Origin: Raillietiella orientalis
Lineage: Eukaryota
DNA: 64,000 nucleotides
NCBI GenBank assembly: GCA_036172245.1
Contig: JAYWIR010000054.1
Location: 124,001-188,000 of the forward strand
Direction: 5' to 3'
Shown here: in pieces, positions 4,769 through 56,182 of the stretch
Numbering within the stretch: the first letter of the stretch is position 1
How the letters are laid out: each line of letters opens with the position of its first letter
The notes under the pieces: model-generated
Database searches by the model: none
The model's input: only the letters and a program-made list of their open reading frames with translations
Told to the model about the DNA's origin: nothing
Program-made: the position numbers and the translations under genes

Positions 4769-4829
4769 ACGGTTCTCACGTCGGGAATCTCAAACAAAGG
4801 GAATCGCTTTTTATTTAGCTCTGCACACG

Positions 4830-7800
4830 TTACATCGCCCATCCGCGATTGATTCCAACGCTGTCGTTGGTGGAGGCATTTTGGATTGCACGAGCTACAT
4901 ACTTGGGCCACCATATGTAACAAAACTGCCCACCAGTTAGCACGCGGGTCCACAGTGACCGAGGAGCACCTACTGTAAGTACTGCCACGACAGCTCCCAG
5001 TATGCTTCCCGCCAAGACGTCGGTGGGATGGTGCTTGTAGTCCGAAATACGGGAAAGGGACGTAAACAGGGCGGCAGCTAAGCACAGGAATTGCAGGAAC
5101 GGTCGCAGCAGCTCGCTGTTTGAGGCACAGAATCGAACTTGGAGATAAATCTGCGTGGGCGCCGTAAGAGGCACACGTGTTCAAAAACTTGCTCACTTAC
5201 CGCCAAGTACAACATCGTATAAAACGAATAGGATGCGTGACCAGAAGGAAAAGACAGCCTTAGGAAAAATTCAGAACAATCCCCAAAAATTAGTCTGTAC
5301 TTTACATCACATCCTTCAACACCCAGTTGACTCTCTGGGTATTAGAGCATCTGTAATCAGTAACATATTGCATGGGTTGAGTACAGTCATCATCACCCCA
5401 AACAGGATGACAGGCATCCATAAAGTGGGGTCGCAAACGACCTACGCTGTATTTCGCAATGTCGGTGAAGAGCTGCGAACACGCAGCACCAAACAAAAAG
5501 CATCCGACAGTTTCATATATAGCTATTCCCCAGAGGGGCAATCTGAAAGATCCTATAATCACAGGAGGAGCACGGGGGCGTTTTAAACCATCTGCTAATT
5601 CACAAAATATCATCTGGTATACAAAACACAAATCAAATACCGAAACAAGAAACACTTCACAAAACAACACTTTATTGAACGTTTGTCAAACTTGCACACT
5701 TGAAGTTAAGCAACAGCATTAAGAGAAAAACTCTTATTCTGGCAAAGGAAACACTCCATCCATCCAAACAGACACTTGGGGCACACAAGGGTTCAGGAGA
5801 GAAGGGAGAGGGAAGGAGGGAAGAAACGAATACTTACAAATGCCGCGGGCACCAAGGTGCCCACTCCGTACAGGACTGCGGTGGAAATGGTGGACTCCTT
5901 AAAAGGGTATCGTAACGAAGCATCGTTACAGAAAAATCCTCGTTTGTAAGGCTTCCCCAGAAGATGAAAACAGAGTACTGAGATACCAGCTGGAACATCA
6001 AAGAGAACAATATGAAAAAATAAAAAAATGCACACGGCCGTCAGGAAGAAATGAGAGGAGGAAAAAAAAAACAGGCATGCACTTGCAAAGAGTTCGGAAC
6101 TCTTTTAACCTCGACATATTTGCGACGCAGTCAAGAAACGCTTTAATCGGTGCCCATGGCTTTCGGATTTTATCTGAACAAAAAATGGGTGGCACTCGCG
6201 CACCACATATGCTGACGGCAAAGTGACAGCTGAAAAGAAAAGTCCGTACCCATGGAATACGGAAGCATATGACAAGGCAGTGTCGGTACACTAGTTGAAA
6301 AACACACACACACGAGATAAAGCACCTCTTTCCTAATGCTAAGGGCACTCTCCTCATACCATCGAGGGGGCAACCCAATCTTCGGCTTCTTTGTACATGG
6401 AAATCGCGGCTCATTTAATAAGTGCATGTATCGCCTGACGACCGGTGACTGCTGGCTTCTGGGATGCTCTTTCCGCCACCCTTTTTCCGAAAAGCACGGG
6501 AACGTACCCTCAAAGGGTTTGTGAGATCGACGACTGGAGTTCAGCTCGTCGGACTCGCACGTCGACAGGATCGCGCCTGCTGTGTACACTTCAAGTGATG
6601 CTGCGAGCATCTCGTCTTCGGCACAAGTACAAGAAGGGCTCCCAACCTTGGGCTCTTTCCACGACACCGTGCGGAACATCCGCCCCACGGGAGGAGACCG
6701 TGCACACGAATAACGGGTGGGACACTCGCTACTCGCATGACCTGGTCACGGCCACACGAATCGTCCTCCGTGTCAAAACCACACACCCACACACACAACC
6801 ACTCCACAAACCGCGCGCCATGCCCACTCTGGAGTCAGCACACCTTGAAGGGCATCCCTGTTCAAAAATCATACTTATGGTGGTTTTTTTTTTTTTTTCT
6901 TTCCACTTTGCAATTAAAACAATTCGCTTCGAGTGATTCTGAGTATTTTTTTTTCCTGGCAAGGAATCAGGCATCACTCTGGGATGATGACCTTGTCCAA
7001 AAGCCTTCAATCTAAATTCAGACGCGCAGTTCTTCGTTGGAACATTCGATAAAGAGCAAACCATCCAAAGCATCCTTAACATGGCTATATGTGGATCATA
7101 AATGAGCAGCACTATGAATCGACAAATTAATCAAGTTACTTAACACGTGTAAAAAGAAATAAAATAAAATAGTTTTTTAAAAATCCGGCCTCACTTGCCC
7201 AAAACCTTGGTCCTTGTAGTCAAGATGGGTTCCGAACAGACTTACTTTAAGGATACACCATTAAAAACCTAATGCAAGTAAACCATGTATTTGGGTAAGT
7301 GCCAACGTCAGACAGACTTCAGCATTTAAAACTTCGCAAATTAGCTATCAATGTTATTTGTATGCAAGGAAACTAACGAGCATTCGTAATAGCTTACTAT
7401 TAGCAACATTAAGAATGATGTGTGTCTTAGCACTTCAGGAAAATTCCATTACAACAAGAGGCTACCTAGCCATCAAAATTGCACTAAAGGCACTTGGTAC
7501 TCAATGAAACCAACAACCTACCAAAAAACAAGTGCTAATCACTTTGTAAATCAAGGATCCATGCAATGGAATTATGCTATGTCATAAGTGTGGCTGAGAT
7601 CCTCATTTTGGCACACAAATACAGAAAACGTAGAACCCTCTGGCAAAATCTAGGCTTCAGCACACTGAATGTTAAATCTCTGAGTGAAATTACTTTCTTG
7701 CAAACATTCACACATTCACGACCTTCCAAAGATTGGCGGGCTGAAAAATGACAACATTTTCAGCACAGACAATAAGGATGTCCAAATAAAATCTTTAATT

Positions 7801-9763
7801 ATTTACTTTCTCATACAAATTTGATTGGTGTCGAATAATGTTTTTGGGGGAATTTCCAAAAGAAAAATACACTTGCTACATGATCATTAACAAGATCCAT
7901 ATCCTTTGAAGCTTCCAATTAATAAACTTTTTTGAATTCTTACTCAAAAAATATTATGCCCAGCCCTGTTCTTAAAAAGTTTGCAATTTGTAATGACAAT
8001 ATTGGACTGAAATTTTCGAACCGTTTGTTTTTGGAAAGTCCGATCGGCAAAGTAACAGCAAAACCTCCCAGAAATTCCGAAAGAACCAACAAAATGAAAT
8101 AAAAATCTGTTAAATACACAAGCCAGAAATATGTGAAAAGACTTGAAAAATTCAACATCTTTTGTAGAAGAAAAAAGGATAATTAAACAACACATTCTGA
8201 AGTTATCCAGAATTGATCCATGAATGCAATGTTTTATGGAGTTTTAGTTCACCTGATTGAACTTTGTCTTTATTGGAATGATTTAAAGGCAGGCACACAC
8301 AAAAACACCAGGTTGGATGAATTTTACATTTTACATTTGCACAGTACATATTCCATCTCATTAAATTAATGATTCAAATAAACAAGAACTTAATGCTCCA
8401 TAAGGTTTATTTCTTGTAAAAATCCATTATGATTACCATCTTTAGAAAGAAGTTTGTTTCAAGATACTAACTAGAGTACCAGTTGAGTCTATCCCACAGT
8501 TAATTTCTAAATTTCTAATGTTAAAATACTGGAAATTAGTTTTGACCAGAATAAATGAAAATACATCCCACAATGTGAAACCAAATGTAAACATTACTGA
8601 CACATCAACTCATTAGATAAAGTTCTTTCAGATGATTGTGAATGCAAATCAATGCATTTAAAGAAATTTCATGAGAAACATGATCCCATGCATTTTCAAT
8701 TTCAATTGAAACAAATTTCAGTTCCATTTAATCAAGAAAAACACTGAATCTGACTTTGTAAAAACTACACAACACTAATATGTGCAAGTAAAAGTTTTGA
8801 ATACATAATGTAATGAAAAAAAAACAAACAAAAACAAAAACAGAGGAGGAGGAAATAGAAAACCTAACTTCTTGCATATCAGTAAATGTTAATAGTGCTT
8901 GAAAATGAATATGATAGTTTTAGGAAAAGGCTCGACGTCGATGTTTCTTCAGCTAAACTTTATACTTTAAAAGTTAAATGCCAAAAACAGTTGTGTTAGG
9001 TTCAGAGCAAAAAAGTAAACTTGCCAAAAAAAAAAATCAGGGCAATGAGAACCCAAGAAACCTCACTGGTGAGCAGAACTCCACGAAAAACAGACTGCAA
9101 ACATGCAGAAGAATCCATCCACAAGCAATCCTGGGAAGATGGTCTCAATCACTGGATGATGCAATGATGGTATCAAGGTTATTAGCAATGTGCATGCACA
9201 ATTTTGCCCAGCACCAACTGCCACAGATCAAGGAGCAGATAAGCAAACAAACTGGCAAAAAGGTTTGAGGGCAAGTCAAATGCCAAGGAGAAAATGGGGG
9301 GAAAAGACAAAAAAAAAATTTTTGCTTTTTTTCTGTGAACGTGTGTTGGAATTTTTCTGGGGACGATGTGCTTCACAATGTATCTTTCACTTTATCCAAG
9401 ATGTTTTCAAACAGTGCCCAGTCTGACCGACACTTGTACATATCCCTTGTACATCTGGGAAAAACGGTCATGCATGTACAGATAGGCCGCCTAGCGGTGG
9501 GAAACAACACGTGCCAGACGTACAACGCATACATTTCGGCAGCACGTTTGCCATGTGTGTGTACGGTACGCTGAAACACACTGCAAGGCATCACGATACG
9601 TACACACCTGCGTACGCTCTGCACGTACACACACACCAAAGAGGTGTAGCACGACCACTGTGTTCGGCCCGAGGGCAAAAGTTGGGAACTTTTCATATTT
9701 ACCTGACAGGAAAATAATTAGATCCAGCATCAGTTTCAAAAGAGATTCGTACTTGGGTTTCAT
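4830..9763 (-). CDS. wun: Lipid phosphate phosphatase (PAP2, wunen/PLPP family), 6 coding exons: 9763-9703, 5989-5838, 5613-5306, 5258-5201, 5150-4974, 4925-4830
   Basis: Spliced product reads MKPKYESLLKLMLDLIIFLS-AGISVLCFHLLGKPYKRGFFCNDASLRYP...KYSVGRLRPHF (C1)...LSFPSGH (C2)...SRISDYKHHPTD (C3). All introns are GT-AG with compatible phases. The first exon is less certain than the others. The symbol denotes the family; orthology is not shown. Confidence 0.92.
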
Positions 9764-13149: not shown

Positions 13150-14733
13150 TTCCTTTTAAGAAGGGAAAAAGGCTCGAAAATAATGTGGTTTGGAGGCCGA
13201 GAATGGCGGTCACCGATCGCACCATCATTCAAATGGCAGCCGACCTTTTCCAAAGGTTGTACTCTTCTGCCACAAAACCCAACAGTGGTTCATCCACAGA
13301 GCATATATTTTTTTGCGGCGCCCCATCTGAAATCGGGCTGTTTCCATAGATATCTGGAAATCGCATCTCCCGTACTACCACAATTCCGTCTGACCTCTTA
13401 CAATGGGAAATCTGAACTTTGCCAGCGGCCGCGCGTGATTCCAAACGTTGCGGGTTCGAATTCCCGTAAACCAAGAACGCAGAATCGACTCTTAGTCCAT
13501 TCCTGAATGGCGAGTTTCTCTTGCAGGGACGGGCTGACCTCTGGAACGCACTCATGGCTCCCCTCCTCCGGACCCTGCTGTTTGTTTGTTCCTCCCCCAT
13601 AGATATGAAAAAGCTGACCGAGGACTTTCCGCGAAAAACCTCTTGGGGCACGCAGCGGTCCTGGGTCTGCTTGAAGACTTGTGCTCTCCGAGTCGGAACG
13701 CCAGACTCTATGTTCTTATGCTAGAAGGATGGAGCATCAGCTCCACTGTAGAAGATTATCCCTAGCGGCGAAGTTCTGGACCACCCCCTGGTGCGTCCCG
13801 GCCAGACTCATGGCCAAACGAGCAACCGGCGCTGAGTCCCGTGCGTTCCCCGTGCATGACCCTCCGGGGTTGCCCCGATGCGGGTGCCAGCACCAGCAAA
13901 TGTTCTCCTTGGTCCAGGAGAACGGTGAATTTCCTGCGGCCTCCGCCAACCGTGGTTTACCGGAAACAACAGGAAATGGTTCAGGCGTGGATGGAAAGAA
14001 ACGGCACGAGCCCAGAGCAATCGCGATGACTCTCTGACCGTTGCAGGAAGCCATGGACTGCCCAAGGAAAACCACCTGGGCACTGAACACCCCACTTGCA
14101 GCCGGGCTGAACGCAATCCAACAAAGTGGAGATAGCGATGGTCTTGCGAGATGGGAGGCACCCCGTGAGATCGCAGGAAAGAAGCTGCTGGGATGCTGGA
14201 CGGCGCATTAACTGGCTGATACGCATGCACTCATACCGCCCTCCTCGAAGGAATTCTCCTCTGACTGCAACTTCTGGACATTCCTCCTGAAGAGGCAGAA
14301 ATATCCTCAGTATTTGTGGACAGCTCCACGTTTCCCCTGAAGTGGCGGGACTCGGAGTTGTGGACTGCTGCGTCGGGCCATCCCAGGCAACACACGCCTC
14401 CACCACTGGACAAGGGGGAGTGCAGCCGCAGATCGCACCAGGTGCGGGAAACGGGAAACTTCCCTGCACCGGATGTTTGATTATGTTGCCTTTCTGAGTG
14501 TCTAGGAACGCTTCGCCGTGACCCTCCCCACTCCCGATGGACAACGGCAGAGAGGTCTTGCGGCGCCTCTTCGCGCAAGACTCCATGTCGCCTGCAGCTT
14601 CTCTTGCAGCTCTGTGCTGCCTTCGTGGAATCCCAGCAGCGAAAAGCGACGACGAGACAGGCCAGTCGAACGGTGGGGTCTTTGCAATTGTCTGCATTTT
14701 CATGACGAAGGCGACAGGACGGCCACCTCCCTG
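13150..14733 (+). mobile_element. Decayed L1/Tx1-like LINE ORF2 3' part (family A)
   Basis: FQRLYSS linker (~13250); degenerate CCHC region (RLHHWT...RCGKRETSLH); C-terminal PAASLAALCCLRGI, which is shared with the copies at 16.6, 36.4 and 42.5 kb. Confidence 0.7.
13420..13540 (+). mobile_element. Fragment of the tRNA-headed retroposon (head only)
   Basis: B-box GGTTCGAATTC at 13453 and downstream CGAGTTTCTCTTGCAGG match 14765-14850. Confidence 0.55.
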
Positions 14734-15790
14734 CCCGCGTCGGAGGCCTTGTGGTTAAGGCTTCCGCGTGTGGCATCATGCGTCGCGGGTTCGAATACTT
14801 CGACAGAGACTCTGACGCCACTGCGTCGTCGGGTTCCGAGTTTCTCCTGCAATGGCGCTGGTTGGTCGAGACATTCGGGCGTGGCACCGGTGGTCGTTTA
14901 AGCAGGGAGGCCCATAATGAAGGCCGCAACAATGGGAGTTGACCTTCGGGTCCTCCCAGGAGTCAAGGAGTGGGGAGTTCCCCCTCCTATCGTGCAACGG
15001 AGAGCGGACCCCCCCACACCGGGGGACCCCTCCGGTTTCAAGATGGAGCAGGAGCCCTCATGCGCACCTCTCCAGTTGTTCAAAGGAACGGACCTTCCTA
15101 TTGGGGGTCCCTCCGAGTCGTCGCCTCTTCACAGAGTGTGCACAAGGAAGCAAGCGAGAGCGATTCCTCTGCGGGAAGCTGCAGCTCCCCTTCTGAATTT
15201 CGGAAGCGTCCCTTCGGGGTACTCTTCAGAGGAGTGAACGGGAGTGAACAGGAGCAGTTCCCTTGCGGGTTCCCTCCGGAGAAGAAATTCCTACTAGCGG
15301 ATCCTTTCCGGGTTCCCTTCGGAGAACATGAAATGGAGAGGACTGCTCTCCCCATGGAGGGGGTGTCCTTCCAGAGAGAATGAGGAAGGAGATTCCCTTC
15401 GGGGTTCCCTTCGGAGACAACCAGAGTGATAGGAACGGACTCCTAGCCCTTCCTGGATTCATAGGGCGGACCCCCATCCCGGGGTGCCACCTATCCTGAA
15501 GAATTACACTGAAGAATTACATGCCCCGCTGCAGGCTGCCGCGGGTGGAGGGGCGTGGAAACACAACAGTGTGCTAATGTTCAAAAAGAGCCACGAGGCA
15601 CGCGACCGGCTCTGAGGTACTTAGTGAACCAAAAAAAAGAAAACTCTTAAAAAAAAAAAAAAAAGCTGAAAGAAAAACAGCGAAGTCAGAAGAAAAAGAA
15701 AGAACTCAAGGATTCCCATCGTCCTAGGCCAATAGTAACGATCTCCTCGTGGGGGTCGCTACTGGCCTTTAATAAAAAAAAAAAAAAAAA
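14734..15790 (+). mobile_element. tRNA-headed non-autonomous retroposon (long SINE-like) with UUCG-hairpin array, copy A
   Basis: A-box-like GGCCTTGTGG(TTAAGG) at 14745; B-box GGTTCGAATAC at 14788; tandem TCCCTTCGGGGTTCCCTTCGGAGA units at ~15160-15450; hairpin 15726-15768; AATAAA plus poly(A) to 15790. Homologous copies occur elsewhere in the window. Confidence 0.75.
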
Positions 15791-16090
15791 GAGGAGGAAG
15801 TTGCCACCATGCTCCAGAGGATGCCGAGGATGCCAGCAAGAAATCTACGATCCCTTCCCTTCCATTCCCAGCACATTTTTAAACTGAACTTTTGTGTGTT
15901 TTTTTTTGTTTGCTTTCTTCTTTCCCTTCTCTCACCTTTCCTATGAGGACCTCATCGGAGGAGCTACTCATGAGAAGCAGCGCCTCCCAGGCATCTCCCT
16001 TCGTAGTGGTAATGTCAAGCCACTACGAAGGAAGACATTTTTATAATTCATGTAACTTTTTTTTTTTTTGTAAATATTTTTTTCAATAAA
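15791..16090 (+). mobile_element. Diverged 3' UTR of Tx1-like family A
   Basis: GAGGAGGAAGTTGCC...GGATGC...GATCCC matches the sequence following ORF2 in the 16.2-17.2, 36.5 and 42.3 kb copies. AATAAA at ~16085. Confidence 0.55.
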
Positions 16091-16117: not shown

Positions 16118-16200
16118 AAGGATGAGGCCGAGAAATAGGTGCGTCGTGGGTTTCGAGTATCTCCCCATAAAGATGACGCTGGTCGTCCTGTTCCGGTGCG
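16118..16200 (+). mobile_element. Fragment of the tRNA-headed retroposon body
   Basis: GAGGCCGAGAAATAGGTGCGTCGTGGGTTTCGAG is nearly identical to 35350-35390 (minus) and similar to 45705-45735. Confidence 0.6.
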
Positions 16201-16229
16201 ACACTGCTTTGTCATCCGATTGCTCCGGG

Positions 16230-17200
16230 ACGTGTATTTATACAAAAAATAAACATACAGGTCAGTGGTAATACGCACGCATAAATATACTAAAAAGAAC
16301 CTCGCGAGTACCGGTACGCAGACCGGTGAGGTCCGCCTCGGCAGCATACGGGAAGAGAAGACAACAAAAAAGAAAACAAAAACAAAAAAAACATATATAC
16401 GGAAAAAATTGGGAGGGCTCGGAAAGGGATCAACGGGTGCTGGAGGCCGTCCTCTGCATCCTTGCAAGGATGCCGGCAAGTTCCTTCCTCAGGATGCCCA
16501 GATGGCTGTACTCATGAAGGGGACGGCAAAATGGATGGCACCCCTGTCGTTCTGGCCTCCACTGGCGTTGCTCCATGCAGTCACGGTCCCGCCGCGTGGG
16601 CAGCAAAGTGCTGCTGGGGATGCGGCCGCAAGAGGGCGTAGCGCAGGAAGAGGCGCTTCAGAACGTGTCTGGGGTTGCAGATAAGAAGGGACCCCAACCC
16701 CTTCATCCGCAGGGACGCAGCCATGCGCTCCCATAGAAAGCTGAGGACCACACAGTCCACGAGCAGGTGCGGGAGGGATTCTCTTTCCCCGCACCTGCTG
16801 CAGTTGGGGATCGCACTCTTCCGGGTCCAGTGGTGTCGGCGGGTGTTGCAAGGGAGGTCTCAATGCAACAGCAGGATCGCCGACTCCTGTCACTTTAAGG
16901 GGAGGACAGCACTGTTCCAGCACGCTGGGGGCCACTGCATTTCCTTGCAGCACTGGCAGAAGCCACATACCCACGTTTAGTGACCGGAATTGAAAGTCGA
17001 CTCTCCGGGGTCCTTCCAGGCATCAAGGAGCCTCAGGAGTCCGTCTCCGGTTGTGAAAATTAAGCCGCCCCCTCCTTGACAGGGAATCCCCACCGCGTGC
17101 CATGAAGAAAGTTCCTGGGAAAGTTCGCTCGCCAAAGCGGACTTCACCAGGGTCAGTCTTTGTTCGTTTTTCACGACTGCCGCCAGCAGTTACTCTGACA
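16230..17200 (-). mobile_element. L1/Tx1-like LINE 3' fragment (family A): CCHC tail plus 3' UTR
   Basis: RHHWT...PNCSRCGERESLPHLLVDC zinc knuckle, ASPAALCCPRG motif, and the conserved 3' UTR hairpins. Confidence 0.8.
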
Positions 17201-17989: not shown

Positions 17990-20720
17990 TTTTTTTTTTT
18001 TTTTTTAATATGGCTTGATATCTGATGACGCCGTGCTGCTCCACTTTCTCTTTTTTTCAAAAGTCTTTGTGCCGCGATCTTCTCCGCAGTGACGGATGCA
18101 GCTGTGCTCCCTTTTCCCCTTCCTTTCTTCGACGAGTGCCAGCTCTCCTGAGGAGAACCTCGGAGACAACCACCAATGAGGTGCTTTGATTCGCCTTCCT
18201 CGACTTGTTATTTGAGTTTGGGGATGCAGTTAAGCAGGATCACACTTTTTATTCTTCACAGTCTTTTTTTTTCTTCACCCGGGGAGCTCGCTGTTCCTAC
18301 TTCTCTTTGTCAACACACCGTTCTCCGGCTTTCTTGTGAGAGCGGGTCGTTGATTTTTTCGTGTTGTAAAGAGGCTTCGGTCTCTTCCGGGATTCTCCCT
18401 ATTATGTGGCTCCAAAGTCCCGAGTGTATCGGATACACGAGGCCACCACGTGGTGCCTCATCTCTCCGAGAACTCGCTAAGTACTCCAAAGTCGTGCAGC
18501 ATCGCATCGTTCTCTGGTTGCGAGCGGACCTACAATGAAGGCATGCACTCCGCAATGTTTCCCGTCAGCTGTAGGACCACTTCTTGATTTTCTCCCCATC
18601 TGCTTCTTCCAGTAGAGCTGAATGTTTCTTCTCTGCTCTCCAGCGGGCAGCAGACGTTCAGGGACACTATCGATTGTCTTTCTGAAAAATCAAGTCGGGA
18701 CTTAAGGGGGAATCCACCCTGGAACACCCTTCCAGTTTGTTAAGACCATGGTCCCCTTCATCGTATTTACTGCAGAGTTCTTCATCCTCCTCAATATCGC
18801 AGCGAACAGACGAGAGTGCCTCTTTCAGAGTTTCACGGTATGAGGCAGCATCTTGTCCCACACCTTACGGTGCCGACATGAGCGATCCACTTCCTTCCTC
18901 TTGGCCTCCTCTGATGGGTAGAAGGTTGGATCGAGTCGGGTGGATGGGTGCATAGTCTGGGAACTGGAATAAAGTCCCCGGTTGTGAGAAAGTAGCTTGA
19001 TGCCCGGTGCGGTCTCACACACTGCACACTGGTCCAGGTGCTCTTTGATCAGGGCTTGCCAAGCGTGCTCTCTTTTCGCTGCCCTCACGCCGGAGGCAAA
19101 CTTTCTTCTCGTGCTGCTGTTATGGGTGACATCATCGATCGTAGTTCTTAGCTGTCGACCAATGAATTCCCAGCGGCTTCACTTCTTCTCGAAGATATTC
19201 TTCCTTTCGGTCCACAAACCCCCAGTATCTCCGCTGGTCCTTGAAAATTTTCCGTAGCAACTGCTGTTCGAGATCCTTTTCCGAAAGTGGTTCGAGTGGA
19301 CCACTTCTCAGAGAGTCTGCCGGATCAATCTGAGAGTAATCTGAGACAGTTGTCCAAGGTGAACGCATGTGATTCATCGTCCAGCTCCATTAGTCCCTTG
19401 CAGCCCTTTTTTCCTCTCTCCATACAGTCACTCGTGGGCTGCCCGGGCCCGGAGACGCAGGACTTTTCTTACCTCCCATCGACCTTCCTGGTCTCTGTGT
19501 TGCCATTCTTTGGATGCGTTGCTAGCCTTGCATGGTGGATAAGACCGGAAAAGAAGAAAAGTCTTGAGAGCTCCATCCTTTGCCATGATGAAAGGCTACC
19601 GTCCAGAATGCAGTTCGCTTCCTGGCAGATTCCTTCCTTTGACGGATGGTACTCGAAGATTTCGATTTCAAAGGGTCTTCCCAGGTATTTGTAAGCCTCT
19701 GCTAAGGTGATGAGGGAAATTCTCTTGTTTTTCACTATGCTTTCAACTTCCTTGAATCCTCTGCGAGTTTTGCCTCTGAGGCGAAGCGAGGCGCACTTCG
19801 CTGCGTTGATGGATAGGCCTGCACGCTCCGTCAAGTTTTCAGAGTGGACCATTCCTTGCCTTTAGTTCCTACTCTTCCTTGGCTAGGACGACGACGTCAT
19901 CTGCGTATTCCGAAACCATGTCCTCCCCATAACTCTTCCTCATGGCGCGGAACACTGGCTTCGTAGCCATAATGAATAGGAGTGGTCTCAGTGCACAGCC
20001 TTGTTTCACCCACAGAGAGAAAGTCCTCGTTGTCGTTGACTCCAACTGCGTGTAGGTGGAGCTCTCGGAGCAAATACCCTCTACGTAGTCCTTGCCTGCC
20101 CAAGCCTCCTCTACTGTCCCCGAAATCATCTCACGAGACACCGTCCCAAAGGCTTTTGCAAAGTCTCTAAAGACGGCGGGGACGGCCCGGGAACAGCGGC
20201 GAGCAGAGTCGAGTCTCGTCGGGAGAGCAAAGTTCTGTTCAAGCACTCTATCGAAGGGCAAGAGGCCCTTCTGCTGAGCTCCATTCTCCAGAATCTCCAG
20301 TTCCTCAGCGTATAGCCCGTATGTACCTTTGCTGACGGAGATTGATCTCCTGTTGGAGGCGTCTTCTGCCGCGGCAGAGCCTTTTGGAATGAGCGCAGTT
20401 CTGGTGCATTTCCAGTCCTCCGGGATCCGACGAAGCCGCGGCACTCCAGAGCCGCCGCTGATCTTCTTCTCCGCCGAGTTCTCTCTGGGTTCTTCCTGGA
20501 TGTGCACAGTTTGCTTGAGGAACGCGCCATGTCTGAAGGACATCTCCAGCTCACAGACAAACGATTCTTAATCAGCTTTCAGCATAATCTTCTTGCACGA
20601 GACCATCCAGAAGGAGCCAAGGCCAACATTCAAATTCTGCAATAAGAACGGAAATCTCTTGAAACAGTGCGCCTTCTGTGGGTAAAAGGTCGAACATGCG
20701 CAACTACGTGATTGGCCCCA
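17990..20720 (-). mobile_element. Decayed R2-group (NeSL/Utopia-like) non-LTR retrotransposon: RT + CCHC + restriction-like endonuclease
   Basis: Motifs in the expected order: IPEDWKCTRTALIPK, QKGL, DFAKAFGTV, VKQGCAL, YADD, GLSINAAKC, YKYLG, LSSWQR, RSNLLP, degenerate CxxC..LPH, PDLI, NVCCPLE (DVTxPFE-like), PEND. Many stops and frameshifts. Possible poly(A) at 17990-18006. Confidence 0.88.
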
Positions 20721-20989
20721 ACTGGAAGAGTCGCGAAAGGCAAGGCAAATAGATAAAGAGTAGCAGCTTGAACTTTTCCCAGCAAGCGCACATAGGCTCC
20801 TCTCTTGAGAACATGGAGATGAAGGCTCTTACCCGAATTTTTATTGCCAAGGGATTTATTTAGAAGAAATAAACAAACAAATTGGGAACTTAGTTCCTAA
20901 ATAGGACAAAAACAACGGAAAGGAAGTCCAAGAGATGGTTCGCCGACAGATAGGTCGGTTATAAGGGAGGGAAGGGTACAGCCACTGAA

Positions 20990-21250
20990 TAAATTAAGGG
21001 TGCATGTGGACAGCGGTCTTTGTTAGTACCTGGTCCTTTTTGCTCAGTACCGGCGCGGAACGAGGGCGATCTCCGACTTGACTTCCTCTTCCAAGTGACC
21101 ACCTCGCAGCCATCCACGTGGAGACCGACTGCCACGCGATTGGCCTTCCTAGGCCGCGCCCGAGACTAGCAGATGGCGGGCTGTGACGACGGAGTGGATG
21201 CGACATCTGGTTGAGGGCGCCTGACGAGAGTCCTCTGAGCGCGAAGAATG
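20990..21250 (-). mobile_element. L1/Tx1-like LINE RT-thumb fragment (family B)
   Basis: VGDRPRSAPVLSKKDQVLTKTAV is homologous to 21950-22180, 44760-44860 and 57760-57860. Confidence 0.7.
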
Positions 21251-21439: not shown

Positions 21440-23180
21440 TCTGAGAACATGAACCCGGGACAGTTCCGAGGGGCCCTTTGCATCTTCTGGTGCCGGCCAT
21501 GAAACGCCCAACTCCTCACGTCGCAATGATGAACAAAGTCCGGTGGCCACACTGCGACCCACGCGGTATGGAGCCCCGCAGTCATAAGAACAGAGGTGGA
21601 GAGACCACGGTCTCAAGCAACATCCGCTTTCCTGGCCTACAGGGGAAATGCATGGACTCTTCACACTGCTATACAGGGGTCGCTCGTACCACCCCTTTTC
21701 CTACTCATGCAACGATGCTCAGGAGTGCCAAGTGCAACCGTGCTTTGATACCCAGAAGTGCGGCTCTTCATTCTTACTCGAAAGCAGCAGTTTTCCACTA
21801 GGTCACGCCGAATGGGTTTATTTGCCATGAAGAAAGGAACATGTGGGGAACCGGGTTCCCCAAACGAAAACAAGAGAACAAATTCCAAGAGAAAGGTTCA
21901 CCGACACGCAAGTTGGCGCTGGATCAGTCCGAAACGGGAGGGAACAGTAACTAAATAAAGGAAGGGAGGATGAGGACAGGGGACTTTGGTAGTATGCGCT
22001 CCTTTTCACTCAGTACCGGCGCGGAACGCCGGAGATCTCCGACTCGAATTCCTCTTCCAGGCGAGTCCACCTCGCAGCTGTCCTCACGCGGGCGGCCTTC
22101 CTTCGCCGCGTCCGAGACTTCAGCAAGTGGCGGGCTGTGACGACGTAAGGGATGCTTCATAGCCTTGAGATCACCTGATGGCACTGATGCTCGAAGAATG
22201 GCCTCAGCAAGTCCATGGCGGTGTCATCGGGATGCAATGGCACCGGAGGCAGCCTTCGCCCCAGATCCTAAAGAGCACCTCAAACAAGTTTGGGGACGTA
22301 GCTCTTCTGGGAACGAGGTGCCAGCTCGGACTGCACTAGAAAGCCTAGTGCAGAAACAGAAGCACATCCTGTTTCCACCTCAAGGGGAACATCGAACTTC
22401 TCATGCTCAAGAAAGGGACCACAAGTTCTTCGGGGACCACACACTAAGAAGATCGCTCTACCGAAACTGTCCGTTCGGCGGCGAATGCGGAGTGGCGGTG
22501 TCCATCAGCTCAGGCGCCTTCCAGCCGCCAAGGAGTTCGGCCATTTCTGCAGTGCTGCACTCCCACTCCTCCGGCAGGCAACTGTCATTGCTTGCCCGTA
22601 GGGCATACAGCTCTGCAAGCCCCCCGTAGCGAAAAGGTTGCAGTTTCGTATCTCCTACGCGGGTGACCAATCATTGCAAATAGTCTTCATGTTCGAATCC
22701 CCCTCAGCATGGGAAGTTCCTCAAGATGTCGGTTGCATGCGAATGCCATCCGGAATCGCAGCTGGATTTGCTTTCCCCATGTCCACAGCAGCACTGAAGC
22801 ATGCCAATACTCCAGTTACGAGGCTGCCACGGTGTCTGCCGCGTGAAATCTCTTTCCTAAGGTCTGATCTGGTGTTGAGAAGTCTGCCATTTCAAAGCAG
22901 CTCAGTGGGCTGGAAGACTTCAGGGGAAGCAAGGTACTGGAGTCCCAAAAAGTAGTCTGTACTCGCTATAGGAGTACTCGCTCTCGGTGCGAGCCATCAT
23001 TCCTGTGTACCCAAGCAACGACAAGGTGCTGAGACTCAACAGGAAATCAAAGGAAAGCGAGCCGGGAACCTCAAGAGGGAGGTGGTACGCAGACAGCATC
23101 CAACGCTCCCGGGAGATGCGTTCGAGCCACCGCAGGAGAACAGCAGACGGACGAAAGAATTCTAAGCCACCACTGCTGGA
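21440..23180 (-). mobile_element. L1/Tx1-like LINE RT fragment (family B)
   Basis: Degenerate RNW-SIGML, NGQ, KQ(G)C..SAL.F, LSEKERILPKSPVL (LSxxGRxxLxKxVL-like) and EELGV (GGLG-like). Nucleotide homology to 44.2-45.2 and 57.3-58.0 kb. Confidence 0.75.
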
Positions 23181-34560: not shown

Positions 34561-34609
34561 TACCCTTGCAGAGGACACCTGGTGTGTTAAGTAATGAAGG
34601 ATCTTTTGC

Positions 34610-35465
34610 CTCGTCAGGGGGAGCTTTTCAAGCACCGTCCACGCCAACTGAGGGTGCGTGTGACTCTTCCCCAGTAGTTAGGGGGTACCCCAGGAGAGGA
34701 CCACCCTATGAATCCAGGAAAACTCCGAAGGAAGGAGTCCACTCATCTTATGCTTCGTAGGGGAACCCCGAAAGGAACCTGCGCCCTGGTTGTCTCCAAA
34801 GGGAAACGCCTTTTCTTTATTCTCCCCGGATGGACCTCCCAGAAGAAGTCGCTCTTCGTTTCTTCTTCAGAGGTGACCTGGAAAGGATCCTTCCTATGAA
34901 TTTCCTCTCCGGAAGACCCTTGCAAGGGAACCGCTCTTCGTTTCCTCTTCTGAAGAGAACCCCGAAGGGAGGTTTCCCAATTTCTCTGAAGGGTTGCTCC
35001 CCGAAGGGAGTGGCCCTCTTCTTGACGCTCTGCATAATGCAGCGGGTGGGTGGGATCTGTCTGAGTGTCCCTTCGCATTAGTACGTACTTCTTGAGCAGA
35101 TTCACTTTTGTTGATTTGGATGGGTCCTGGAGAGGCAACCTTTCGGAGGGAGTATCAACAGCATCCATGGTGTGCGATGGAGGTTCTCCATGCGAAGGGG
35201 ATAGACAGAACTGGAAGGGAACCCGCTTCTCGATCTCTGGAAGGACCCTGGTGGGTGAGCATTCAATCCCGGCCACTCAACGGGAACACCCAGCTTCCAG
35301 CGGTGCCTCACCAGAAGCCTGCAGACCACCTGGAGCCATCCTGCGGGGGAACTTGAAACCCACGACGCACCCCCATTTCTCGGCCTCGGTCCTCCGCGTG
35401 GGGATTCGAACTTGCAATGCTGGGTGCTACCCGCGGAGACCGCAGCCGCCCTCGGCCTGGTGCAA
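34610..35465 (-). mobile_element. tRNA-headed retroposon with UUCG array, copy B (3'-truncated)
   Basis: B-box GTTCGAATCC (35402-35411, minus), shared body, tandem CCCTTCGGGG units at 34700-35010, and shared TTCCTGGATTCATAGGG block. Confidence 0.75.
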
Positions 35466-37854: not shown

Positions 37855-37950
37855 GACAAGTCCAAATCAACAAAAGCGAATACGCTCAAGATTTACGTAC
37901 CAATGCGAAGGGACACTCAGACAGACCCCACCCACCCCTCCATTATCCAC
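37855..37950 (+). repeat. Isolated internal fragment of retroposon copy B
   Basis: TCCAAATCAACAAAAG...ATGCGAAGGGACACTCAGACAGA.CCCACCCACCC closely matches 35045-35121 (minus). Confidence 0.8.
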
Positions 37951-40399
37951 GACGTCATGCTTGGAAGTTCTTTCAAGAGTGCTTCGGGATAGCAGTGAAG
38001 ACGCGAACCACTCACACACGATCCGATCGTCAATCCACTGTTATCCAAAGGAGCCATGCAGAAAGAGATTTACCAGTTGCGGCTACAACCAAGGCGATGC
38101 AGCACAGGTAGTTCATCCTGAGGCCGAGTGCTTGCTATGGACCTCGGCCTAATCTCCGAAAACCAAATGGGGTTCTCGACGTTTCCGCGCCTACAGATTC
38201 TGAAAAGACGAACGTGCAGCACGGCCTCGTGAGGAATCTTCAAAAAGTCAAAAAATTGGAGCATTCCGACGTGTCGACTTGACTTTACGGCATCTTCCCC
38301 TTGGGACGCCCATTAGCAGCACGCAAGGCCTGGTGGTGCCGAGGCGGCATTCACTTGCGCGCCCTGCCGTGTCCCAGCTGCCCGCACGGTCCCGCCCACC
38401 AATGCATCTCTGCTTTGGCGTAACAAGACTTCTCCAGAACTGATGAGGTTTGCATCGCTCAGAGGTCTCCTTGCCACCGCGATGGCGAGGCTCTCGCAAG
38501 CATCCAACGAAAAGAAGGACTTTCCGTCCTCTTTAACGGATGCTTCCCAGCAGCCAGAACCTGCACCCGACTTCTCCCCAGGTGGGCAAAAGTTGAAGAA
38601 ATCGCAGATAAGAAGAATGCATTCTTTTTGTGCATTGTCACTAGGAAGGTACCTCGAAATGCTATGGAGATGTTGCGAAGCTGCAACGTGTCTTTTCCGT
38701 TCAGTTCTCTGGCCTTGTGCTGAATTGGGTGGCCGGTCCGTTTCCTGGAAGCCCTCTCTACTTCGGGGAGGATCCAAGAGAAATGGCTCCTTGTTCTCAG
38801 GCATCCAGCAGCTGCTCTACGACTCTCTCCTCAACGACGCTGGGAGACGGGCATCGTGACAGGGTCTGCAGCCGGCGCAACGGGGCGGTTCTTCGCTCCT
38901 CCACCATCTTTTGGCTGTTCGTTCGGAAACGATCCGAAGGATGAAACCAGACAGGCGGTCGGACCCGAGTGGGGAAGGGAGGAGGCGACTGCTCAGAACC
39001 ACCAAATCAGGCCCTCTGCAATGGAGGTACCTCCACTGGCAGTGCAAGAACCGGGGACCGATCTCTTGGGTTCACCTGCGTTCTTGAAAAGCAGGGTGGA
39101 CCTCTCATGACTGGGCAGCTCCTTCCCGCACTTCTTCCTTCGGCTCCACCTTTGGCGGCCAAGCAACAGATGGCATCCGAAACCACTAGAAAGACGCCTA
39201 TGTTTGACCTGAGCGCCGCCCTATCTCGCGGGAAGGTAGTCGGCGTTCCGAAAGGCGCCACTTGAGGAAAAAGTTTCGTGTGCGGGTGAATTCTAGCCTG
39301 TGGCTGCTTGCCCTTGCCTGCAGAAATCAACGCCCCTTCATTAAAGGTGACCAAGGAGAAGCTGATTTCGCTTCAGAGGGCACTGTGGATGTTGTGCGTA
39401 TGTGGCAGATGGAATATCCGTTGCTCTCAACCGCTTCTTAATCCGTCAGGGGTGTGCTGGCAATCGTTCATCTCGGCTGGCTACTGAAGATGCTCCTTCG
39501 GTGACCAGTGTCTCGATGCTGGTGGCAGGCTCACTCTAGCATCTTCATCTTTCGCGCGTGCACGAAACATCTAAAGTTCCCTAAGCACTTTATTCTTCTC
39601 CGTGTCCGCTTTCTCACTTGCCACCAGCGCCTTAGGGAGTCCAACTCTCCCCTCTCGGCGAACGGGCGAGCCGTCTTCTTCCCCCATCCGGTCGCCTTTC
39701 TTTGTAGCCCTCCCACACGGACAAGCGGCGTCGAGTGTGACCACTCGGTTTCCTCCTTGCGTACTCCGGGTCCGTGCGGTGGTGCTACCAGTCCGTCTCC
39801 CGGGATACGTTGGTGCGAAGCCAACAGCTCCCGTTTTTTCCTTGATCTCCTTCTGTGGCGACGCCCAGCAGATGGTCGCGTTCCCGTGGTAACGGAGCGG
39901 CGGTTTCCACCGGCAACGGTCGAGGTGGTGCGCCGACGACTGCGCCTTCGGGCATCGCCGGCACGTCCAGTCGTCAGGCGCTCCCGAAGGGGCAGCCGGG
40001 GAGCCGCAGGTGATCCCCGGGATGCAAGAAGGGCTTCGAGGTAGGACTGTGCCACGCAGGGCACGCCTCCCCGCAACCCGGACACTTCCGGATGGACACG
40101 CCATGCCTCCTCGGGTCGCTGAGGAGTGCTGCGTGCCCCAGCGGTGAGTTCCGTTCTCCAAAGATAAACCGCGGAATTCTGGGATTCCTCCCTTGCCCTC
40201 GAGCGCTGAACGCCCCGTTGCCCGCGAGGAACCACAGTGGATGCTGACTGTGGTGCAACGGCTGCAGGCGGCCTGATGGTAGCATTCACGCGCGGGAGCT
40301 GCTGGGGCATCATCGCCTCTGCTTTCAAATCTAGGAGCAGCATCCGCAACTGCCTGCGGACATCCCTCGTGCTCTCCTTGGTTGCTGGTTGCGGCACCT

Positions 40400-44149: not shown

Positions 44150-45160
44150 GAGTTCAAGGAGAGGCAAGAGTTCCTTTGAGTTCTGCACCACTGCAACAGC
44201 GACCAAACTCCTGGGCGGCTGGAAGGCGACTGAGCTGATGGAAACTGGCACTCCGCATTCGTGGGCAAGCGCGGGGACAGCTTCGGTAGAGCGATCTTAG
44301 TGTGTGATCCCCGAAGAACTTGTGGTCCCTTTATTGAGCATGGGCAGTTCGGTATTCCCCTTGAGGTGGAAACAGGATGTGCTGTTGTTTCTGCACCAGC
44401 CTTTTTAGTGCAGTTCGAGCCGGCGCCTCGTTTCCGGGGGAGTTGCCTCTCCGAATTATTCCAGGTACGGGACGGTCGAATCGTTCCCGCACCTTCTCGT
44501 GGCCTGCGGTGCCTTTCAGGAAGTTTGGCGGAGGCTCGTTTAGGAGCTTCAGGAGTCTTGAGTCCTCCTGCTACGGAGGACACCATCATGAACCTTCTGC
44601 GGCCATTCTTCGTGTGCTCAGGATTCTCGGCAGGCGCTGTGGTCTCAACGCCATGTTGCATCCGCGACGTCGTCACAACCCTCCAGCTGCTGGAGTCTGG
44701 ACCGCGGCGAAGGGTGGCCTTTCGCCCGCATGAGGACGGCTGCGAGTGGGTCTCAACTGATAGAGGAAGTCGAGTAGGAGATCTCCGGCGTTCCGCGCCG
44801 GTAATGAGCGAAAAGGAGCGGATACTACTAATGACCACTGTCCTCACCTTCCCTTGATCTATTTGGTTACTGTTTCCTCTCGCTCTGGACTCACCCAGCA
44901 CCAACTTCGTGTCAGTGAACCTCATCTTGGAATTCGTTTTGTTGCTTTTGTTTGGAGAGTGAGGTTTCCAACTTTATGGTAAGAATGAAGAGCGGCAGCC
45001 CTTCATCCTTACCATAATTCTTATAACCCTATAGCTCCGGTGGCCACCCTGCGTGTCGCAGTGTGGCCACCGGACTTTGTTTCTTGTTACGACCTGTTGG
45101 AATTTCAATTGGCCGGCACCTGGCGATTCAAGGTCCCCCTTGGGGTTGTCCTAGGTTCGT
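44150..45160 (+). mobile_element. L1/Tx1-like LINE RT fragment (family B)
   Basis: (KQ)GCAVVSAPAFLVQFEP and MSEKERILLMTTVL; collinear homology with 21440-22540 (minus). Confidence 0.75.
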
Positions 45161-45640: not shown

Positions 45641-46810
45641 CCCGCGTCGGTAGCCATGGGGCCACAACTGCGGCGCGTGGCACCAGGAGTTGAGGGAAGG
45701 GCGGACGCCGAGAATGGGTGCGCCTCGGGTTTCTAGTTTCCCCGCAGGATGGCGCTGGGGGAAGGCAGGCACGTGCGCGCTGGAGACCGGATGTCCCCCT
45801 TGACTAACAGGAATCGGGAGTAGACTCTCCGGGACCCTTCCTGGAATTCATACGGGACGGTTTTCTTCATACGGGGGATTTTTCTCAGTTTTGCAAATGG
45901 AACCGACCCAACAAACGGGGAGACCCTCCATCGTGTTGCATGGAGCTGGTTTACCCGCTTCGGGAGTTGCTTCTCCATGGTGTAAGATCCGTGCTGATCC
46001 CTTCGGGAAGCTCTCTTTCGAGGAAATTGGAAGCACCCCTTCGGGATTGTCTCCAAATAGAGGTTTCATTGCAAGTTCCCTCTGGAGTTCGATTCGGTGA
46101 CAACCAGAGCTAAGGCTCCCTTTGGAGTTTCCTGCCAAGCGTAAGGAAATGAGACTCCTCTTATATGAGGCTTCAGGATTGAGTAGGATGCTCCTGACGA
46201 AGGTGTCCCCTACGCATTCTTAGCTGGCGCTTTTCCAGGCGCCATGTGGTGGCATGGTGGAGCGCCTCCAAAGGATGCAAACGGTTTTTCAGGAATTACG
46301 GCGAACCCCAAAAAGAAGACGGTCATCAGCGTATAGGCGGAGCGTAAATGGGAGAGCAGCCGCGAGGTCCTCTCCTCCCCTTTCCTCCTCCCTAAGCAGG
46401 CGTGACGGCACAGATGCGCCGGTTCCCTCTGCCGATAGTCGCCTCTGGTTCCCCTGGGAAGAGGGCAGAACAATGTCTTGTCCCTACCCTGGTCACTGTG
46501 CTTATGCTTTCCTATTCTCCCAGGAGATGCCCTCCTTATCTTTCCTATTTCCAGAGGGCCTCTGCGGGAATAGGGAAGGAGCAAGAAGACGACAGGCTAG
46601 TTTACTTAGGTTAGGTGGCGACATCATTTCCCTATGCCCAGGAGGGTGGACAGTTCTTGCATAGTTAGCGAACCAAAAACCAAAGAAAGAGGAAGAAAAT
46701 GACAGCAGAAATAAAAGCAGCGCAACCAGAGGAACCCGAAAATTCCCATAATCCCAGGCCAGTAGCAACCATCTCGTAAGAAGGCTTTTTTTTTAAAAAA
46801 AAAGAAAAAA
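45641..46810 (+). mobile_element. tRNA-headed retroposon with UUCG array, copy C (diverged)
   Basis: Starts CCCGCGTCGG like copy A; shared body GCCGAGAATGGGTGCG...CCCCGCAGGATGGCGCTGG; CCCTTCGGGA units at 45995-46050; shared tail TTAGCGAACCAAAAA...ATTCCCAT...AGGCCAGTAGCAAC followed by an A-rich run. Confidence 0.7.
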
Positions 46811-55600: not shown

Positions 55601-56182
55601 AAGGGGGAAGGGTCACAGTCCTCTAACGTGCATTTCAGACTGTCATTCCCTTCTGGTCATTCAGCAGCTTCATTTTACACAGCCACCTATTTATCTGTGA
55701 GCATAAAAAACATGAAATCCTTATGTATCTTTTCGAACAGCGCCAACTGGACAAATGCATCCGAAAGCCATCCCTTCTCTTCGCAACGAAAGTCTTTTTT
55801 TTTTGGATAGCCACTGTCCTATCACTGACACGCATTTGGGACCATATGCACCACTTCACAGACTTGATAGTTGGTGGCATCCTAGGGGCTTTGATGGCGT
55901 TCGTGATGGTGGGTACAGCTATCATTGCTCCTTTCGTCCACTTTGCCTTTTCAGCGTTTCTTTGCATGGTTTGATAAGCTTGTTTGGAGTGTTGCAGAAT
56001 TTGGATATTATTTTGGACCTCTTAAAGTGAACATGAAAGTCAGTGACGCAGTAAGCAGGAAGATAAACGATTCCTGCATGTGCCACTCCCACAACGGAAT
56101 TTCAAACGTGCCGTGTGGCGATCACCTGCAACACAGGACGATTCTTCCCGATGGAGCAGCTGTTCCAGTGATGCAAAGTTGA
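52627..56182 (+). CDS. Second PAP2/wunen-like paralogue, possibly pseudogenised. Exons: 52627-52775, probable ~52893-53520, 55336-55592, 55639-55696, ~55741(or 55723)-55908, 55955-56182; first exon not located
   Basis: KRGFYCDDTSIQLPY, KYYVGRLRPNF (C1), LSFPSGH (C2), TRIWDHMHHFTD (C3). Intron positions and phases match gene 1, including the identical 58-bp exon. It has a GC donor, a doubtful acceptor and two frameshifts in the loop exon. Confidence 0.85.
53085..53400 (+). repeat. Diverged in-frame 156-bp (52-codon) tandem duplication
   Basis: KRSQFYRKLKPRFRVE...GAASQKA versus KRSWFYRRLKPLFRLE...GGASKKA; AAGAGGAGC at 53093 and 53249. Confidence 0.85.

Follow-up and report, generated by a model that had tools for sequence, protein, structure and literature searches.

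A tRNA-headed SINE of Raillietiella orientalis with junctions pointing to target-primed and self-primed insertion

We analyzed 64,000 nucleotides (nt) of the Raillietiella orientalis genome (GCA_036172245.1, contig JAYWIR010000054.1, positions 124,001-188,000 of the forward strand; hereafter the window, whose own positions are used throughout), in which a sequence-only reading had described a family of tRNA-headed retroposons. The family is a real non-coding tRNA-headed short interspersed element (SINE) of 0.8-1.1 kb with at least three subfamilies. Its junctions make it quite probable that the element inserts by two routes, one target-primed and one self-primed, the RNA in the latter case priming reverse transcription with its own 3' end. 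Complete copies share one ending, consisting of a stem-loop, a T-run and an A-tail; a second large class stops at the foot of the terminal hairpin, a point we call the hotspot. Of the three long copies in the window, A and C are tailed and B is internally truncated, and the evidence for the second route comes from elsewhere in the genome. When copy A was searched against its own genome (210 Mb, 491 contigs; best 40 of 4,005 candidates scored), at least 45 matches were found among those listed, the full-length ones being 82-88% identical. Three subfamilies were sampled, namely Y1 (70 copies), Y2 (21 copies) and an old set (39 copies).

Junctions of tailless and tailed copies

The 15-mer preceding the terminal hairpin has 408 exact matches genome-wide, only 85 of which run six bases further into the hairpin. 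On contigs C1 and C2, all 43 matches were read: 21 continue in the sense orientation, 20 stop and 2 continue inverted. This census counts a duplicated locus, a doubtful sense call and the two arms of locus L298 among them. At least half of the copies extending to the 3' region belong to the hairpin-foot class, which has neither a tail nor an A-rich nick signature. Duplications were scored at 10 bp or longer with one mismatch allowed, and mismatched flank pairs served as the control (2%). The target-site duplications that the sequence-only reading had proposed to look for were found around 29 of 46 tailed copies (one hotspot copy, L017, is misfiled among them), 6 of 10 that end within the internal A-run and 11 of 18 otherwise truncated copies, but around only 1 of 16 hairpin-foot copies (Fisher p 8e-5). 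Among 5'-intact copies of the census, a set overlapping those 16, a duplication was present in 9 of 12 sense copies versus 1 of 10 others (p 0.004). The left flanks of tailed copies are A-rich 9-16 bases upstream (42% A, n=39), compared with 27% A for the hairpin-foot class (n=31, p 0.002). The absence of this A-rich start argues that hairpin-foot copies were never ordinary insertions that shed their tails. A T-rich nick at the 5' junction of the class was not above background. At one rebuilt empty site (L014), an inverted 23-nt copy of right-flank sequence took the place of about 13 host bases, a change that fits end-joining.

Some hairpin-foot copies carry what appears to be the primer itself. 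On one strand, the junction reads as the 3' arm of the hairpin, U2-3 and the complement of the free base nearest the hairpin on its upstream side, which is the junction expected from self-priming because the RNA 3' end, paired at the hairpin foot, would be extended on the same molecule. In 46 unselected hairpin-foot copies, 3 have an antisense-hairpin score of at least 10 after A2-3 (control 0.01%, p 1.5e-8) and 11 score at least 4 (control 3.9%). The inverted-junction pattern occurs at 12 exact sites in the genome and a control pattern at none. All 12 sites, plus L285, were read: A2-3 is followed by the reversed hairpin over 7-28 nt with 0-2 mismatches, and 10 of the 12 reach at least 10 nt. 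No inverted copy has an A7 run within 100 nt, and 0 of 13 keep a tail. Where both ends were sampled, 5 of 5 start at base 1 and none has a target-site duplication; the head of two more lies outside the stretch fetched. The subfamily of the remnant, where it is long enough to tell, matches that of the body (Y1 hairpin on Y1 body, Y2 hairpin on Y2 body). Thus, as in a self-primed retrocopy, these copies stop at the point of expected priming by the RNA 3' end, and the first base of the complementary DNA (cDNA) is attached to the primer. At L298, a full sense copy runs through the hairpin and TT, has no A-tail and is joined directly to an antisense copy starting at the hotspot; this is the whole predicted fold-back intermediate. 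A different fold-back, unlike a primer remnant, was seen at L313, where the final ~18 bases of a hotspot-ending copy recur in inverted form behind it.

The tailed class carries the footprint of target-primed insertion by a long interspersed element (LINE) of the L1/Tx1 type, whose enzyme would have made it. Comparison of six tailed copies with empty host sites, represented by sister repeat copies, gave a net duplication of 6-11 bp. An A-tail and variable duplications with an A-rich start are the relaxed marks of an L1/Tx1-mobilised SINE, and the tailed class has them; the distinction between stringent and relaxed SINEs is that of PMC3747384. The genome holds many L1/Tx1 LINEs, with open endonuclease-reverse transcriptase frames of ~1,180-1,250 amino acids and CCHC-knuckle ORF1s; a LINE reverse transcriptase searched for relatives gave only distant ones (~30%).

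Several further observations concern LINEs and unusual 3' ends. Intact L1/Tx1 LINEs, often in head-to-tail arrays of ~5.6 kb, start with a whole or near-whole U4 or U1 small nuclear RNA (snRNA; Table 1), and the same elements end in a short hairpin plus about four A's, with no poly(A) tail. The 3' end of an old Tx1-like LINE abuts internal SINE positions (~600-715 of the majority sequences) in L298, L299, L326 and L221. In L241, L243, L245 and L258, a short piece of foreign sequence with an A-tail after it separates the 3'-truncated copy from the flank, which looks as though truncated RNAs had been tailed or joined to other sequence.

Proposed routes of insertion and their alternatives

In the model that we propose, RNA polymerase III (Pol III) would transcribe the element from its A and B boxes to its own T-run, giving a hairpin-rich RNA of 0.8-1.1 kb that ends in a stem-loop plus UU-UUUU. 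By the first route, this RNA would gain an A-tail, or offer an internal A-run or microhomology, and be inserted by L1/Tx1-type target-primed reverse transcription with duplications of ~9-17 bp that have an A-rich start. By the second, the U-end, paired at the foot of the terminal hairpin, would prime reverse transcription on the same molecule, and the cDNA, beginning at the nearest free base upstream of the hairpin, would extend to base 1 without parting from its RNA primer. RNase H would then remove the cDNA-paired RNA and leave the hairpin attached; second-strand synthesis would copy the cDNA and at times run into the leftover primer, of which up to ~30 nt would be kept, reversed. The product would finally be joined into a chromosome break without staggered nicks or endonuclease staggering. 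Human L1 ORF2p is able to extend RNA hairpins in vitro, one of them uridylated and derived from Alu (PMC10830420), and the L1/Tx1 ORF2 protein of the host is by this analogy the likeliest catalyst of the second route. We lean, if only slightly, towards the stronger claim that the SINE spreads mainly without target priming, its hairpin acting as a built-in primer and the covalent RNA-cDNA being caught at breaks in half or more of the copies.

Several points weigh against this model. Pol III transcription, tailing and priming are all inferred from sequence, and the second route is well supported as a junction footprint and unproven as biochemistry, with a putative enzyme and a putative integration pathway. 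No LINE with a 3' end matching that of the SINE was found among the LINE regions examined (best 150 of 3,358 reverse transcriptase candidates scored), and the pairing of SINE and LINE is therefore itself an inference. In the unselected set of 46 hairpin-foot copies, which includes a few misassigned rows, 35 score below 4 and have no recognisable primer remnant, and the search pattern itself dictated the initial eight bases of the 12 inverted junctions. The arms of L298 differ by ~15% and by a 35-nt gap, and the locus may therefore record two separate events. Only one empty site of the hairpin-foot class, that of L014, was reconstructable. Two hotspot-ending copies do have duplications, one clear at 14 bp with microhomology (L297) and one of 13 bp (L259), which indicates that ordinary internal priming also ends at the hotspot.

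The tailless copies could instead be ordinary target-primed insertions rearranged later in DNA, palindrome fold-back or template switching having deleted tail and duplication and sometimes inverted the hairpin. The terminal hairpin is indeed a quasi-palindrome, and fold-back replication can yield a structure like that of L298. The young copies are also mosaic: 343 of 444 pairs of common Y1 variants show all four gametes and linkage is gone beyond 30 nt, which suggests heavy recombination, gene conversion or template switching among Y1 source copies. However, the left flanks of hairpin-foot copies lack the A-rich nick signature that a former target-primed site would keep, and the junctions carry A2-3, including bases unpaired in the hairpin, where a simple inversion or a flap-trimmed DNA end predicts one A. 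The single-A junction predicted by plain palindrome inversion was found at three genome sites, which are a decayed sense hairpin and two truncations, and none of the 13 inverted copies keeps a tail; we therefore give later rearrangement little credence. A nuclease that cut the RNA between its two 3' hairpins, followed by insertion of the cut form by another reverse transcriptase (that of an R2/NeSL-type LINE) without duplication, would account for the sharp end point and the absent duplications. An element adjoining 28S ribosomal DNA (rDNA) was found at L230 (Table 1), and a decayed reverse transcriptase of similar look lies at 19469-20567 in the window. Neither the fold-back copy nor a reversed hairpin preceded by A2-3 can arise from cleavage by itself. 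No Rfam ribozyme family, hammerhead and HDV-like ones included, matched at E <=5 in the window or E <=10 in six young loci, where no dedicated ribozyme motif search was made, and no distant duplication of the kind left by chimeras of SINE and other RNA was found behind 19 hotspot copies (230-2,600 nt of flank, ~230 in most). We consider this explanation improbable, albeit one that could still hold for part of the remnant-free copies. The accepted model of "tailless" L1 insertions primed by target complementarity (PMC5322556) would make the element a long but ordinary SINE, and such a class does exist in the family, where the copies with duplications among the 18 otherwise truncated and 10 A-run-ending ones often show microhomology. 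That class is defined by duplications, which the hotspot copies have in 1 of 16 and 1 of 10 cases, and the reversed primer remnants, which it does not predict, already contradict it for the 13 inverted copies; as an account of all tailless copies it is very improbable.

The hairpin array bears on a last alternative, that a host Pol III RNA with a cellular job gave rise to the copies as retropseudogenes and uses the array as a functional scaffold. The module core is identical at 89 of 95 positions (~94%) between young and old majority sequences that diverge by ~25% overall. Polarised changes in the source lineages comprise 31 strong-to-weak and 28 weak-to-strong, compared with 78% strong-to-weak in decaying copies (p 1e-5), and these lineages stay at ~63% G+C despite an A+T mutation bias. 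Common Y1 variants are rarer in stems (21/582 vs. 24/312, p 0.01), a depletion that vanishes under the old structure. Compared with its dinucleotide shuffles, the young majority sequence folds far better (z -7.3, span 80). Relative to shuffles, the antisense strand does as well as the sense strand. After insertion, decay is neutral, with rare changes at 0.033 per site and copy in stems and 0.031 in loops. The ratio of G-U-forming to A-C-forming changes was 329:285 (rare) and 8:6 (common) in Y1 and was reversed in the old set (146:186), with no significance in the expected direction. Between subfamilies, stems diverge less than loops in 4 of 6 comparisons, which are not independent, and pairs are kept above the null in 3 of 6. 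Tests of RNA-strand-specific selection were mixed. A long-range helix closing the body (~193-211 with 1017-1031) has a high predicted probability in Y1 and Y2; it was rejected, as 28-40% of shuffled 15-mers do as well, and the same segments pair elsewhere in the old subfamily. Given the signals of constraint on one side and the equal antisense folding, null asymmetry and failed helix on the other, sequence constraint in the source lineages is supported, whereas RNA-specific structural selection on the array is supported only partly. That constraint is equally expected from selection on mobility, and at least three source lineages of different length, ~10^4 copies and the lack of any Rfam match further argue against a host RNA, which we find scarcely credible; the sequence-only reading had offered a non-coding RNA family as an option, and a housekeeping RNA is not indicated. 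For a two-route SINE, our guess is that the array might bind LINE ORF1/ORF2 protein multivalently or shield the long Pol III RNA. CpG hypermutability is absent in decaying copies of all three subfamilies (C>T in Y1 0.042 at CpG vs. 0.033 elsewhere); because C>T is so little raised, the data suggest that these repeats are not CpG-methylated.

Anatomy of the family and its members in the window

Y1 copies lie a median 4.3% from their majority sequence and measure ~1,075 nt without the tail; the corresponding values are 5.8% and ~830 nt for Y2 and 15% and ~930 nt for the old set, and the subfamilies are 73-79% identical to each other. The family has reproducible ends, an outcome on which the sequence-only reading had made itself depend: the start lies no more than 10 nt from base 1 in 55 of 70 young copies, and the complete copies share the 3' ending described above. 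The tRNA-like head with A and B boxes proposed in that reading is borne out in copy A, where both box-like motifs stand at the tRNA-like spacing of 44 nt. Of 36 host tRNA types ranked (62 tRNA hits from 63 scored candidates), tRNA-Arg(CCT) is the best match to Y1 (48/73) and old (46/74) heads, above the SINEBase threshold of at least 60% over at least 60 nt, whereas the Y2 head prefers tRNA-Thr(AGT) (49/69). Because of that preference, tRNA-Arg is by sequence the likely, not the certain, parent. The tRNA-His origin suggested earlier was rejected, as tRNA-His ranks 11th, 24th and 26th here, and 10th to 26th over all comparisons. Neither ARAGORN nor Rfam called a tRNA in the head, which is predicted to refold as a long 5' hairpin and not as a cloverleaf.

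Within the body lie six to seven degenerate modules, 30-49 nt long, in which a stem-loop precedes a purine-rich linker; about two dozen hairpins are predicted overall. These modules had been described as a tandem-repeat core and as an array of UUCG tetraloops. Tandem Repeats Finder reports no repeats there; copy A has five CUUCGG motifs, and C(UUCG)G forms only 2 of its 26 predicted loops, which does not bear out an array dominated by UUCG. The 3' region consists of an A-rich stretch, a small hairpin, the terminal hairpin, T2-T6 (mode T3), 0-4 mixed bases and the A-tail. In 40 true tails, left after three false rows were dropped from 43, the T-run is T2 in 6, T3 in 20, T4 in 8, T5 in 4 and T6 in 2; host tRNA genes have T4 or longer in 30 of 30. 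T4 is absent elsewhere in the body, which counts for little, as 55% of shuffles contain one. The complete end ascribed to copy A (hairpin, AATAAA and poly(A)) is there, its AATAAA being particular to this copy. As a family signal AATAAA was rejected: it is not conserved, occurring in 5 of 40 true tails, always within the A-run, and in 0 of 40 upstream of the T-run, with one further copy having it lower in the tail.

The longest stop-free stretch of the majority sequence is 156 amino acids, and no open reading frame (ORF) is conserved. The frames of the copies had no Pfam match, and the family had no Rfam match in searches of the window and six young loci. The possibility that the family is the 5' untranslated region or ORF1 of a LINE was rejected: a profile hit precedes a LINE ORF only at L231, where it is a decayed internal piece absent from sister LINEs, and the ends of the intact LINEs examined have no family-profile match, only separate insertions. 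The earlier description as an unusually long, structured, non-autonomous retroposon accordingly holds, there being no surviving ORF, fixed ends, target-site duplications, ~10^4 copies and no place as the 5' part of the LINEs examined. Searched with the family profiles, regions picked arbitrarily (70 kb) contained 5 copies, tRNA flanks (92 kb) 4 and LINE loci (46 kb) 3. In the window, with a floor of 20 bits, there were six hits, two being parts of copy C. Reversed sequence, searched as a control, gave one hit. These counts imply ~9,000-20,000 copies, or a few percent of the genome, a rough estimate from about 270 kb.

Copy A interrupts an old L1/Tx1-like LINE that resumes at 15791, which fixes its boundaries, and its first base is taken to be the G at 14733 because nearly all full-length copies start GCCC. 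Compared with empty host sites, its insertion made a target deletion of ~8 bp and not a duplication. The three long copies recognised earlier are all members, although A starts one base before the 14734 given for it and B spans 34580-35449 and not 34610-35465. Identity to the young majority sequence is 74% for copy B and 68% for copy C; to the old majority sequence it is 84% and 76%, respectively. Two of the three fragments recognised earlier, at 13428-13530 (weak) and 16120-16208, belong to the family. The third, given as 37855, does not: 37861-37957 has no family-profile hit and was rejected, as it matches the foreign patch of copy B (35023-35120), a non-family stretch of ~100 nt that is 87% identical to this DNA 2.7 kb away.

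The SINE copies at window position 14733, L004, L006, L008 and L306 all lie at a single A-run close to the 3' terminus of the old Tx1-like LINE. Because their junctions differ, with duplications of various length and one deletion, they look like independent hits. At L012:2589-2707, a copy of the 5S ribosomal RNA gene is followed within a few bases by the start of a young SINE copy. The window also holds another dispersed repeat family (21848-22386, 57422-57959, 44576-44958 and 20855-21250; one pair 93% identical over 539 nt), as well as an ankyrin-repeat frame (Pfam) and exon-like pieces (77-1183, 5302-5685, 52521-52922 and 55222-55626). Some of these pieces, read by eye, presumably belong to lipid phosphate phosphatase (PAP2-type) genes; the one scanned had no Pfam hit, and a search with a phosphatase exon yielded no match.

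Table 1. Coordinates of family members, their parts and related elements (window positions unless a locus is named)
Feature	Position	Strand	Basis or remark
Copy A, complete young Y1 copy, tailed class	14733..15790	+	983/1037 identical to Y1 majority sequence; junctions compared with empty host sites
tRNA-derived head of copy A	14733..14805	+	48/73 vs. host tRNA-Arg(CCT), colinear from base 1 save a 4-nt insertion
Pol III A-box-like motif	14744..14754	+	Sequence; position and spacing to B box tRNA-like
Pol III B-box-like motif	14788..14798	+	Sequence
Second degenerate B-box-like repeat	14831..14841	+	In majority sequences of all three subfamilies
Hairpin-rich body of copy A	14930..15560	+	Core ~15202-15452: ~40-47 nt modules, stem-loop plus purine-rich linker
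Internal A-rich segment of copy A	15626..15708	+	Internal-priming site of 3'-truncated copies that have duplications
Small hairpin	15709..15725	+	3' end 15722-15725 is the stop point of the tailless class
Terminal hairpin ending in T-run (T3 in copy A)	15726..15770	+	Proposed self-priming element and Pol III end; fold, T-run census, inverted remnants in 13 other copies
A-tail of copy A	15771..15790	+	AATAAA there copy-specific
Copy B, old subfamily, 3'-truncated	34580..35449	-	380 bits to old profile; 641/764; foreign patch 35023-35120
Copy C, old, divergent, tailed (T9 then A-run)	45641..46810	+	~280 nt at 46365-46644 unmatched by family profiles
Weak head fragment	13428..13530	+	15 bits, E 3e-5; under the 20-bit floor of the main profile search
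Old-subfamily fragment, second B-box region	16120..16208	+	Profile match; 76/87
Old-subfamily fragment, missed by the sequence-only reading	16936..17113	+	103 bits
Host: 3' part of old L1/Tx1-like LINE, left of copy A, outside SINE	14334..14732	+	Self-comparison; weak zf-RVT match in sister copy, E 0.005
Host LINE resumes right of copy A	15791..15958	+	Self-comparison; flank comparison
snRNA-headed LINE spots	L223:7149-7288 and 1879-2014; L235:8627-8764; L231:6679-6841; L232:1230-1300		
N-terminal zinc-finger-like plus reverse transcriptase element, no apurinic endonuclease hit	L230:1-1635 and 4807-8553	Opposite to 28S rDNA	

Relation to known elements and significance

The family resembles tRNA-derived SINEs (PMC3531059) in its tRNA-related head (66% over 73 nt), A and B boxes, non-coding body, tail and far more than 100 dispersed copies, the 408 exact 15-mer matches alone exceeding the SINEBase threshold of at least 100. 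It differs in size and build: the 175 families of the 2012 SINEBase survey span 75-662 nt and the formal definition of a SINE is <700 bp (PMC3531059), whereas Y1 measures 1.08 kb without its tail and has an array of hairpin modules for a body. Only Y1 exceeds 1 kb; Y2 and the old subfamily stay below it, and none is under 700 bp. As in T+ SINEs (B2, Can, Dip, Ves), the element's own T-run, T2-T6, precedes the A-tail, with short mixed bases at the junction (PMC9599045, PMC8466645). T+ SINEs have a Pol III terminator, post-transcriptional polyadenylation and AATAAA upstream of the terminator (PMC9599045); here, a long stem-loop takes the place of AATAAA upstream of the T-run, and the context, with no CpG decay, is not of the mammalian type.

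Two known models come close to the second route. Tailless retropseudogenes are L1-made, 3'-truncated, duplication-flanked and target-primed (PMC5322556); like them, the hotspot copies are 5'-complete and 3'-truncated at defined positions without an A-tail, and unlike them they lack duplications and carry reversed primer remnants. Twin priming of L1 inverts the 5' part and keeps the poly(A) end and the duplication (PMC2912911). It shares with our copies the inversion of part of an element within one insertion, whereas here the U-end of the SINE is joined head-on to an internal base without tail or duplication. Neither model fits the second route, because both keep duplications and twin priming also keeps the tail.

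Bernstein 1983, to judge by its title, reportedly proposed that self-primed products of U3 snRNA integrate as pseudogenes, and self-priming is said to have been described for BC1 RNA by Shen 1997 and for cytosolic Alu cDNA by Fukuda 2021. These proposals, for U3 snRNA pseudogenes, BC1 RNA and cytosolic Alu cDNA (PMC11485995, PMC3820591, PMC1687206, PMC4476161, PMC10760644), resemble ours in that a Pol III or small RNA primes cDNA with its own 3' end. What we describe differs, as far as those sources go, in that the evidence is a genomic junction retaining the primer, the SINE has a high copy number and the route is a main one. Our literature search, most subscription papers being outside it, found no SINE that keeps reversed primers.

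The new part of this finding is the mode of insertion; the length, up to 1.08 kb, and the hairpin array are a lesser and separate oddity. Self-priming was an early model for the copying of small RNAs into genomes and has been revived for cytosolic Alu cDNA, whereas target priming is assumed for SINEs. A U-ended primer reversed at the exact start of the cDNA is a specific and searchable mark, and the class that bears it is large; the old question of self-priming is therefore testable in vitro and by scanning genomes. The junctions suggest that self-primed cDNA can be heritable, beyond an immune by-product. If the SINE does spread mainly by self-priming, it would need a LINE only as a polymerase, and reversed-primer junctions could hide in other SINEs and in small-RNA pseudogenes.

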